NCBI RefSeq assembly: GCF_003334785.1
Contig: NZ_QOWV01000007.1
Reading direction: 5' to 3' (one strand)
DNA from: Escherichia coli
GTDB lineage: Bacteria > Pseudomonadota > Gammaproteobacteria > Enterobacterales > Enterobacteriaceae
DNA: 64,000 nt
The stretch's first letter is position 1, and every line of letters starts with the position of its first letter. Position numbers and translations under genes: made by a program. Below the pieces are notes generated by a model. That model was given only the letters and a program-made list of their open reading frames with translations, had not been told where the DNA came from and did not search any database. Below, one piece after another: positions 29,910 through 34,212 of the stretch.

Positions 29910-31159
<1,250 letters not shown>

Positions 31160-31336
31160 TAAAGTAAGTAACTGGTTAATTTACATTCTGGTCGCGTGCG
31201 CAAATACGCTTTTCCTCACACAGTTGTCAAGTGTTACGTTTAGATAATTGCTATCCGGAAAAGCATCTGCTATTTATAGCGGCCTCATTTTTCCCCCGAA
31301 CATGGGGATCGATAGTGCGTGTTAAGGAGAAGCAAC

Positions 31337-31792
31337 ATGCAAGAAGGGCAAAACCGTAAAACATCGTCCCTGAGTATTCTCGCCATCGCTGGGGTGGAAC
31401 CATATCAGGAGAAGCCGGGCGAAGAGTATATGAATGAAGCCCAGCTGGCGCACTTCCGTCGTATTCTGGAAGCATGGCGTAATCAACTCAGGGATGAAGT
31501 CGATCGCACCGTTACACATATGCAGGATGAAGCAGCCAACTTCCCGGACCCGGTAGACCGTGCAGCCCAGGAAGAAGAGTTCAGCCTCGAACTGCGTAAC
31601 CGCGATCGCGAGCGTAAGCTGATCAAAAAGATCGAGAAGACGCTGAAAAAAGTGGAAGACGAAGATTTCGGCTACTGCGAATCCTGCGGTGTTGAAATTG
31701 GTATTCGCCGTCTGGAAGCGCGCCCGACAGCCGATCTGTGCATCGACTGCAAAACGCTGGCTGAAATTCGCGAAAAACAGATGGCTGGCTAA
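31337..31792 (+). CDS. dksA: RNA polymerase-binding transcription factor DksA
   Basis: The known 151-aa protein starts at [19 protein letters not shown]; C4 zinc finger [25 protein letters not shown]. Confidence 0.96.
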
Positions 31793-31819
31793 TTACAGCC
31801 GTTCCATCACGTTTACCAC

Positions 31820-31848
31820 AGGCGGGAAATGCTCCCGCCTTATTTTTT
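31820..31848 (+). terminator. Rho-independent terminator after dksA, overlapping the gluQ start
   Basis: Hairpin ggcggga-aatgc-tcccgcc followed by ttatttttt; the ATG of the gluQ ORF (31829) lies in the loop. Confidence 0.75.
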
Positions 31849-32755
31849 GTTCAAAGAGATGACAGACACACAGTATATTGGCCGCTTCGCCCCCTCTCCT
31901 TCCGGCGAGCTTCATTTTGGCTCTCTGATCGCCGCGCTCGGCAGCTATTTGCAGGCTCGCGCCCGGCAAGGTCGCTGGCTGGTACGCATAGAAGATATCG
32001 ACCCGCCTCGTGAAGTTCCCGGTGCCGCAGAAACTATCCTGCGCCAGCTGGAACATTACGGTCTGCACTGGGACGGCGATGTTCTCTGGCAATCGCAACG
32101 TCACGACGCCTATCGTGAAGCACTCGCCTGGTTACATGAACAAGGACTAAGTTATTACTGCACCTGTACGCGTGCGCGTATTCAAAGCATTGGCGGTATT
32201 TACGACGGTCATTGCCGGGTGTTGCATCATGGACCAGACAACGCCGCAGTGCGTATCCGCCAGCAGCATCCGGTCACGCAATTTACTGACCAGCTGCGCG
32301 GCATTATTCACGCCGACGAAAAACTGGCACGGGAAGATTTTATCATTCATCGCCGTGATGGGTTGTTCGCCTACAACCTGGCTGTTGTGGTTGATGATCA
32401 TTTCCAGGGCGTTACAGAAATAGTGCGTGGGGCTGATCTGATTGAACCAACAGTAAGGCAAATCTCGCTGTACCAGCTTTTTGGCTGGAAAGTGCCAGAT
32501 TACATTCATCTGCCGCTGGCGCTTAATCCACAAGGCGCTAAACTTTCCAAGCAGAATCATGCGCCTGCGTTGCCGAAAGGCGATCCACGCCCGGTACTAA
32601 TCGCGGCACTTCAATTTCTGGGGCAGCAGGCAGAAGCACACTGGCAGGATTTCAGCGTCGAGCAAATCCTTCAGTCAGCCGTCAAAAACTGGCGGCTTAC
32701 CGCCGTGCCCGAGTCGGCAATTGTAAATTCAACATTCTCAAATGCGTCATGCTGA
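31829..32755 (+). CDS. gluQ: Glutamyl-queuosine tRNA(Asp) synthetase
   Basis: 308-aa ORF with class I synthetase-like motifs ([11 protein letters not shown] ... KLSKQ). The start is ambiguous: an alternative ATG at 31859 (MTDTQYIG) gives 298 aa. Confidence 0.88.
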
Positions 32756-32814
32756 GCTATGATTAGCCGCTATTTTTTTGTCCTGAATGATGTTTGACAC
32801 TACCGAGGTGTACT

Positions 32815-34212
32815 ATTTTTACCCGAGTCGCTAATTTTTGCCGCAAGGTGCTAAGCCGCGAGGAAAGCGAGGCTGAACAGGCAGTCGCCCGTCCACAGGT
32901 GACGGTGATCCCGCGTGAGCAGCATGCTATTTCCCGCAAAGATATCAGTGAAAATGCCCTGAAGGTAATGTACAGGCTCAATAAAGCGGGATACGAAGCC
33001 TGGCTGGTTGGCGGCGGCGTGCGCGACCTGTTACTTGGCAAAAAGCCGAAAGATTTTGACGTAACCACTAACGCCACGCCTGAGCAGGTGCGCAAACTGT
33101 TCCGTAACTGCCGCCTGGTGGGTCGCCGTTTCCGTCTGGCTCATGTAATGTTTGGCCCGGAGATTATCGAAGTTGCGACCTTCCGTGGACACCACGAAGG
33201 TAACGTCAGCGACCGCACGACCTCCCAACGCGGGCAAAACGGCATGTTGCTGCGCGACAACATTTTCGGCTCCATCGAAGAAGACGCCCAGCGCCGCGAT
33301 TTCACTATCAACAGCCTGTATTACAGCGTAGCGGATTTTACCGTCCGTGATTACGTTGGCGGCATGAAGGATCTGAAGGACGGCGTTATCCGTCTGATTG
33401 GTAACCCGGAAACGCGCTACCGTGAAGATCCGGTACGTATGCTGCGCGCGGTACGTTTTGCCGCCAAATTGGGTATGCGCATCAGCCCGGAAACCGCAGA
33501 ACCGATCCCTCGCCTCGCTACCCTGCTGAACGATATCCCACCGGCACGCCTGTTTGAAGAATCGCTTAAACTGCTACAAGCGGGCTACGGTTACGAAACC
33601 TATAAGCTGTTGTGTGAATATCATCTGTTCCAGCCGCTGTTCCCGACCATTACCCGCTACTTCACGGAAAATGGCGACAGCCCGATGGAGCGGATCATTG
33701 AACAGGTGCTGAAGAATACCGATACGCGTATCCATAACGATATGCGCGTGAACCCGGCGTTCCTGTTTGCCGCCATGTTCTGGTACCCACTGCTGGAGAC
33801 GGCACAGAAGATCGCCCAGGAAAGCGGCCTGACCTATCACGACGCTTTCGCGCTGGCGATGAACGACGTGCTGGACGAAGCCTGCCGTTCACTGGCAATC
33901 CCGAAACGTCTGACGACATTAACCCGCGATATCTGGCAGTTGCAGTTGCGTATGTCCCGTCGTCAGGGTAAACGCGCATGGAAACTGCTGGAGCATCCTA
34001 AGTTCCGTGCGGCTTATGACCTGTTGGCCTTGCGAGCTGAAGTTGAGCGTAACGCTGAACTGCAGCGTCTGGTGAAATGGTGGGGTGAGTTCCAGGTTTC
34101 CGCGCCACCAGACCAAAAAGGGATGCTCAACGAGCTGGATGAAGAACCGTCACCGCGTCGTCGTACTCGTCGTCCACGCAAACGCGCACCACGTCGTGAG
34201 GGTACCGCATGA
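32815..34212 (+). CDS. pcnB: Poly(A) polymerase I
   Basis: The ORF track starts at TTG 32794; the known 465-aa protein begins at the ATT codon 32815-32817 ([13 protein letters not shown]), a documented non-canonical AUU initiation. Confidence 0.9.

Follow-up and report, generated by a model that had tools for sequence, protein, structure and literature searches.

A leaky intrinsic terminator as the probable gate to gluQ expression downstream of dksA in Escherichia coli, and a spurious start codon in its loop

Rho-independent terminators that lie between co-transcribed genes have been described before. In the cases of T1, upstream of dnaG in rpsU-dnaG-rpoD, and of the recA-recX terminator (both cited in PMC3542578), expression of the distal gene is kept to a small fraction of that of the proximal gene, as in dksA-gluQ, and dnaG, again like gluQ, also has a poor ribosome-binding site; the likeness is one of description only, and the genes and sequences differ. 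Far nearer is the dksA-gluQ-rs terminator of Shigella flexneri 2457T, which belongs to the E. coli species complex and in which the same dksA-gluQ locus was dissected by Caballero et al. (BMC Microbiol 2012;12:226; PMC3542578). There, the same hairpin carries a first AUG in its loop (the “bulge” of that paper), a second AUG follows downstream, gluQ has no separate promoter and is limited by the terminator, and the second methionine is the start. The locus is also known from another angle, that of genome annotation: yadB (gluQ) is entry 102 among the about 150 start sites corrected by Nakahigashi et al. 2016 (PMC4909307), a case of N-terminal over-extension through longest-ORF annotation. Unlike other errors of this kind, the false gluQ start falls in the loop of a terminator and hence looks regulatory. 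The arrangement, the effect of the terminator and the start site are, accordingly, already known in print (Caballero 2012; Adams 2021; Nakahigashi 2016), and what the present analysis brings beyond Caballero 2012 are look-ups of Term-seq and TetRP data for E. coli K-12 and a comparison of 80 loci. A paper on 3'-UTR “valves” cites a DksA paper only and contains nothing on the dksA-gluQ terminator.

The DNA that we analysed, hereafter the window, is a stretch of 64,000 nucleotides from E. coli (contig NZ_QOWV01000007.1). Around dksA and gluQ, it is K-12-like: a sequence search found positions 31300-32800 to be 100% identical to MG1655, and this segment matches 5,425 of the 5,426 complete E. coli genomes. 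The ORF list and the RefSeq annotation give the gene order sfsA, dksA, gluQ (gluQRS), pcnB, and the coordinates of the junction are collected in Table 1. The dksA frame closes with a TAA (31790-31792), and the length of the spacer that follows should keep a ribosome that terminates at this codon clear of the stem. The layout proposed in the initial annotation, with a hairpin and a T-run after dksA, an ATG at 31829 within the loop and another at 31859 downstream, is borne out in every element by direct reading. The longest gluQ ORF in the ORF list (31829-32755) encodes 308 aa, with no stop between the loop ATG and the second in-frame ATG (31859-31861; MTDTQ), which lies 30 bases downstream of the first and 18 nt beyond the stem. 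On the minus strand, the ORF list contains only a spurious 103-aa ORF at the junction (31793-32104). A bidirectional terminator was considered and rejected: there is no minus-strand T-run after the hairpin and no convergent gene.

Table 1. Features of the dksA-gluQ junction, in window coordinates
Feature	Position	Strand	Basis or remark
dksA coding sequence, 151 aa	31337..31792	+	RefSeq annotation of the identical MG1655 sequence; ORF list; Caballero 2012 fusions
Spacer from dksA stop to hairpin, 27 nt	31793..31819	+	Read directly
Terminator hairpin	31820..31840	+	5' arm 31820-31827, loop AATGC 31828-31832, 3' arm 31833-31840
In-frame loop ATG	31829..31831	+	First codon of the obsolete 308-aa annotation; initiation is elsewhere, at 31859
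U-tract TATTTTTTG	31841..31849	+	Read directly; in vivo RNA 3' end at 31844
gluQ (gluQRS, yadB) coding sequence as translated, 298 aa	31859..32755	+	RefSeq; PDB 1NZJ/4A91; N-terminal sequence; TetRP and N-terminal peptide

In the stem, aGGCGGGA (31820-31827) pairs with TCCCGCCt (31833-31840), and a terminator scan returned exactly this site, with 8 pairs, 6 of them G-C, a loop of 5 and the tail TATTTTTTGT; the segment TTATTTTTTG puts 8 T within the 10 nt after the hairpin core. The predicted folding energy of the hairpin alone is -14.5 kcal/mol, with 30 nt start-to-start between the two AUGs, compared with a delta-G of -14.7 and a 27-nt gap between the AUGs in S. flexneri, the DNA of which we compared by way of the published description. 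The 91-nt context of the hairpin folds with z = -2.17 relative to shuffles, 3 of 200 shuffles being equally good. As a count, the result of the terminator scan is not significant alone (5 sites against 2.2 expected, in 1.9 kb); the hairpin stands out from chance because each of the 80 Enterobacteriaceae loci has it at the corresponding position and because an in vivo RNA 3' end lies at 31844.

This 3' end comes from the Term-seq data of Adams 2021 (PMC7815308, supplementary files 1 and 3), where it is given as MG1655 160097(-); the 61-nt context printed with it places it at 31844 of the window, in ...CCGCCUUAUU. It is present in all three growth conditions, including LB at OD 0.4 and LB at OD 2.0, with average counts of 3,097,035 and 254,767 at these two densities, respectively. 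Between the 800-nt windows on the two sides of the site, the coverage drops from 250 (upstream) to 62 (downstream) in the absence of bicyclomycin (BCM, an inhibitor of Rho), and from 250 to 72 in its presence; with a Rho score of 1.16 (“No”), the end is classed as Rho-independent, and its intrinsic-terminator score of 7.47 exceeds the threshold of 3 (PMC7815308). In the same data set, the site is classed as “internal to gluQ, +15 from the start codon”, and because of this assignment it is clear that the old 308-aa annotation was used. The mapping of dksA 3' ends that the initial annotation had called for thus already exists, and it yields an abundant, Rho-independent end within the U-tract. 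The properties that mark an intrinsic terminator are found here together: a G+C-rich stem-loop, an adjoining U-rich tract, a 3' end inside that tract and insensitivity to Rho inhibition, along with pairing that is kept in evolution and an increase in downstream transcription when the stem is disrupted, the latter seen in plasmid fusions in S. flexneri. Our principal reading, to which we assign a probability of roughly 0.87, is that the element is the Rho-independent terminator of dksA acting as a leaky intercistronic attenuator, such that gluQ is made by read-through and its translation starts at AUG 31859.

The dependence of gluQ on read-through, as claimed in the initial annotation, is upheld by the fusions and terminator mutants of Caballero 2012, together with the E. 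coli Term-seq and coverage data. In S. flexneri, an RT-PCR product spans dksA and gluQ, the dksA promoters drive the whole dksA-gluQ transcript, and a lacZ fusion devoid of these promoters, which carried dksA, the intergenic region and 5 gluQ codons, showed baseline activity, indicating that there is no separate gluQ promoter (PMC3542578). Deletion of the intergenic region raised lacZ 10-fold, and point mutations that break the stem raised downstream lacZ more than 2-fold (PMC3542578); given that the stem mutations account for about 2-fold of the effect and deletion of the whole region for 10-fold, something else in the intergenic region may contribute. The reporter work, like the N-terminal analysis discussed below, used plasmids, multicopy or T7-driven, rather than the E. 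coli chromosome. The opposite arrangement, in which gluQ has a promoter of its own downstream of the hairpin and the terminator insulates two independent units, was the finding that would have spoken against read-through, and we consider it very improbable. In its favor, our promoter scan picked up a promoter-like pair, TTCAAA-18-TATATT, at 31850-31879. However, the -10 hexamer of this candidate lies inside the coding sequence, so that the transcript would begin after AUG 31859, and the scan as a whole gave 3 such sites compared with 1.8 expected by chance. The promoterless fusion and the RT-PCR product that joins the two genes also weigh against a separate gluQ promoter, although the fragment in the fusion ends inside the candidate -10 hexamer and is, therefore, no test of 31850-31879 itself.

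The position of the 3' end calls for a closer look at what it represents. It lies only 4-5 nt past the stem, a distance shorter than that of typical release points, and on its own cannot separate termination from the arrest of an exonuclease at the hairpin; given this short distance, the end was probably trimmed. Conceivably, then, the 31844 end could be mainly a product of processing or exonuclease arrest, with the hairpin serving chiefly as a 3' stabilizer of the dksA mRNA and not as a site of RNA polymerase release. The drop in coverage could, likewise, reflect faster decay of the gluQ segment, and Gordon et al. 2017 reported an RNase III-dependent site within gluQ that speeds up decay. We nevertheless regard this possibility as improbable: the canonical hairpin with its U-tract has the high intrinsic-terminator score given above, the U-rich tail is kept in most genera, and the transcriptional lacZ fusions, which are independent of gluQ mRNA stability, respond to deletion or mutation of the stem (PMC3542578). 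With termination at a leaky intrinsic terminator as the preferred interpretation, the coverage ratio of 62/250 translates into read-through of roughly a quarter in exponential LB, a ratio that mixes termination with mRNA stability.

The cleavage cluster of Gordon et al. 2017, denoted “gluQ*”, is at MG1655 159578 (window ~32363); the cleavage depends on RNase III and reportedly accelerates decay, but was not reproduced in vitro. We considered and dismissed the identification of this site with the hairpin at the junction, the cluster being ~500 nt inside the gluQ coding sequence. A minus-strand promoter-like site at 32330-32303 lies near “gluQ*”, and transcription from it would run away from ~32363.

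Where the evidence departs from the initial annotation is the start codon. The codon in the hairpin loop had been taken as the gluQ start; the start in use is the one at 31859, as attested by N-terminal sequencing, TetRP, RefSeq, the crystallized protein and the relatives of E. coli. Edman sequencing of GluQ-RS produced from a clone with the native intergenic region gave the N-terminus of the second-methionine form (PMC3542578), and so the protein sequencing that had been proposed is available, for S. flexneri, with a result that points to 31859 and not to 31829. In E. coli K-12, start-site mapping has been accomplished by ribosome profiling instead of the suggested toeprinting or mutagenesis, and initiation appears at 31859 only: Nakahigashi et al. 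(2016, DNA Res; PMC4909307) list a new yadB start at 160082, a shift of +30, ATG, with TetRP signals of 13.7/72.9/24.8 at this ATG against 0/0/0 at the start annotated in 2006, and report the N-terminal peptide TDTQYIGR. Exclusive use of 31859, the outcome named beforehand as contradicting the loop start, is, thus, what both initiation and the N-terminus indicate, with zero signal at 31829. RefSeq places the start at 31859 in MG1655 and three other strains; the protein in PDB 1NZJ and 4A91 is the 298-aa form; and similarity to GluRS structures begins at residues 17-19 of the long ORF, the 10 extra residues having no counterpart.

All this bears on the suggestion that the loop AUG is a genuine, perhaps, conditional start, from which melting of the hairpin would release a 308-aa GluQ isoform, with the Shine-Dalgarno-like AGGCGGG in the 5' arm guiding the ribosome. 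The frame from 31829 is open, a possible Shine-Dalgarno for the first AUG was noted by Caballero 2012 (PMC3542578), and the stretch upstream of 31829 is predicted to form a duplex of -6.3 kcal/mol with the anti-Shine-Dalgarno, whereas AUG 31859 has no recognizable Shine-Dalgarno and a duplex of only -1.7 kcal/mol, its absence having likewise been noted in the 2012 paper (PMC3542578). Nevertheless, the absence of TetRP signal at 31829 in three samples, the match of the N-terminal sequence and the N-terminal peptide to the short form, the lack of any equivalent of the extra residues in GluRS homologues or the crystal structure, and the fate of the loop ATG in close relatives, where it is lost or out of frame, and in other genera, where it is missing from the loop, leave the long isoform scarcely credible, and a start at 31829 can be taken as already largely refuted. 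The hallmarks of start-codon sequestration are not found: the codon in the hairpin is not the one that initiates, and it is not conserved among relatives. An in-frame TTG at 31847, inside the T-run, was also weighed as a start and discarded, as it has no Shine-Dalgarno and the TetRP peak is at 31859. In the predicted structure of the read-through RNA, a weak A-U/G-U hairpin at 31841-31861, in which the U-tract pairs with AAAGAGAUG, would mask the true AUG, with a predicted unpaired probability of 0.1-0.2 for the start; as a control element, this pairing was rejected because its sequence is not conserved in other genera.

For the comparison across Enterobacteriaceae, we scanned one genome per species, which returned 80 loci with GluQ identities of 76-97%; the set analysed, with that of MG1655 included, comprised 80 loci. 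The hairpin is found between dksA and gluQ in 80/80 loci, at a median distance of 25 nt from the dksA stop and 10-27 nt ahead of the conserved ATG. The exact core GGCGGG...CCCGCC is present in 75 of the 80, although both flanks are fully diverged, and 73 of these 75 have 5-9 T in the 10 nt past the core. At the two top pairs, compensatory double changes from A-U to G-C and from G-C to A-U are observed, and the basal pairs covary too; overall, 86.6% of the cells are paired, compared with 47-57% when the partners are slid, the six core pairs being (near-)invariant and, hence, uninformative. The loop, in contrast to the stem, is free to vary (TCT, TTT, CTT, CAT, TCAC and others). In most other genera, the stem is longer by one pair (GGCGGGAG-NNN-CTCCCGCC) and the loop has 3-4 nt; in Escherichia, a G-to-A change opens this pair, producing the 5-nt loop AATGC. 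Among the 80 loci, the loop carries an ATG that is both in frame and open in E. coli, E. albertii and Escherichia sp. E1V33 alone. This codon is replaced by ATA in E. whittamii and by TTA in the divergent “E. coli” isolate AF16, is out of frame in Escherichia sp. MOD1-EC7003, where one T is missing from the run, and is found in the loop of none of the other genera examined; within E. coli, positions 31793-31873 are identical in 4,454 of 5,425 genomes. From this comparison, it follows that the loop ATG is a lineage-specific accident, whereas selection maintains the hairpin as well as the downstream ATG. The loop ATG is, in short, an obsolete annotation start that arose by chance in the Escherichia lineage and misled early ORF-based annotation.

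Two groups of loci depart from the common pattern. In 15 loci from Enterobacter, Lelliottia and Yokenella, the invariant stem is followed by a degenerate tail (GTTACCGTT, GTTACTGTT; in Yokenella, GTAACCACA), and no more than 10-12 nt separate the stem from the gluQ ATG, the hairpin being kept despite the weak-looking U-tract. In these genera, far more transcripts may pass the terminator, or the hairpin may serve a different function. In eight other loci, four of them from Phytobacter, Kosakonia and relatives, an extra, stronger hairpin or a REP-like insert separates dksA from the conserved hairpin, and in those four, the latter is weakened to GTCGGGGAAA...TTTCCCGTAT, at -9.2 kcal/mol.

The near-invariance of the stem core invites the question whether read-through is not merely leaky but regulated. 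The hairpin might be an attenuator at which growth phase or stress tunes read-through via a trans-acting factor or a ligand that recognizes the invariant stem, so that gluQ is induced independently of dksA. In S. flexneri, the junction RT-PCR product increases 20-fold in stationary phase, with changes of 1.3-fold in the dksA and gluQ amplicons, and Caballero 2012 left open a riboswitch-like or protein-binding mechanism (PMC3542578). In E. coli, the raw Term-seq count at 31844 falls 12-fold between OD 0.4 and OD 2.0, compared with 3-fold for the neighboring panD terminator, and the 6-bp core is invariant in sequence in 75 of the 80 loci despite the fully diverged flanks. Each of these observations can, however, be read otherwise. 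The junction RT-PCR was an end-point assay quantified on gels and is internally odd, in that the increase at the junction was not accompanied by one in the gluQ amplicon; the Term-seq counts lack normalization across conditions; and purifying selection for a stable stem would, by itself, be expected to keep a G-C core invariant. An Rfam search of 31100-33000 at a permissive E-value gave only a chance snoRNA match inside dksA (19 bits against a gathering score of 50), the riboswitch-server search of Caballero 2012 was negative (PMC3542578), and the minimum free energy fold of 31700-31960 keeps the terminator hairpin, with no competing antiterminator evident. The spacer upstream of the hairpin is not conserved between genera. 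On balance, we deem a regulated attenuator of this kind unlikely; and more specifically, that the hairpin responds to growth phase or stress, either because a trans-acting factor binds the invariant GGCGGGAG/CTCCCGCC stem or because DksA/ppGpp tunes its efficiency by acting on the elongating polymerase, appears slightly less likely still. If it were so, the GluQ modification of tRNA-Asp would become more frequent in stationary phase, whatever the level of DksA.

Several other sites in the vicinity deserve mention. Between sfsA and dksA, the terminator scan revealed a terminator-like hairpin, CTGCTATTTATAGCGG followed by CCTCATTTTT, at 31267-31291, and the Term-seq data for LB at OD 2.0 place an “orphan” 3' end within it, at MG1655 160652(-), equivalent to 31289 (PMC7815308). 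By the numbering of Caballero 2012 (PMC3542578), the dksA +1 is near 31282-31284, and the sfsA terminator seems to overlap the promoter-proximal region of dksA. A further Term-seq end inside dksA, at MG1655 160387(-) (window ~31554), has a count of 29,202, is not Rho-dependent and has an intrinsic score of 1.04 (PMC7815308); it is probably a product of processing. At the distal end of gluQ, a promoter-like TTCTCA-17-TATGAT at 32735-32763 extends across the last gluQ codons and the stop (32753-32755), just upstream of pcnB, and as a predicted site, this candidate would be in keeping with separate promoters for pcnB that lie inside gluQ or directly behind it. In RefSeq, the first codon of pcnB is an ATT (32815-32817), as against TTG 32794 in the mechanical ORF list. 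The ATT is the known non-canonical AUU start of pcnB.

The picture that emerges for the junction itself is one of transcriptional attenuation followed downstream by weak initiation without a Shine-Dalgarno. The initial annotation had instead proposed a coupled control point of terminator and translation, which no data support. Published experiments show the co-transcription, the lack of a separate promoter, the effect of the terminator, the 3' end, its Rho-independence and the start site. In the proposed scheme, most transcripts from the dksA promoters would end in the U-tract, leaving the stable 3' end at 31844, and a minority, roughly a quarter as judged by RNA coverage in exponential LB, would read through and be the sole source of gluQ mRNA. 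On the read-through RNA, GluQ would initiate at AUG 31859 without a Shine-Dalgarno, yielding a low-abundance 298-aa enzyme, and the two weak steps, read-through and initiation, would jointly keep GluQ far below DksA, under the control of the dksA promoters. We infer both the read-through fraction and the purpose, namely, that GluQ is held far below DksA while sharing dksA promoter control.

The locus illustrates how longest-ORF calling can place a false start inside a terminator and thereby suggest regulation that is absent. The old 308-aa start also found its way into later studies: with it, the 2021 Term-seq study scored the dksA terminator as a 3' end “internal” to gluQ. For the biology of the organism, the arrangement places the enzyme that makes glutamyl-queuosine in tRNA-Asp under the dksA promoters while keeping its level much lower, which was already the conclusion of the 2012 paper.
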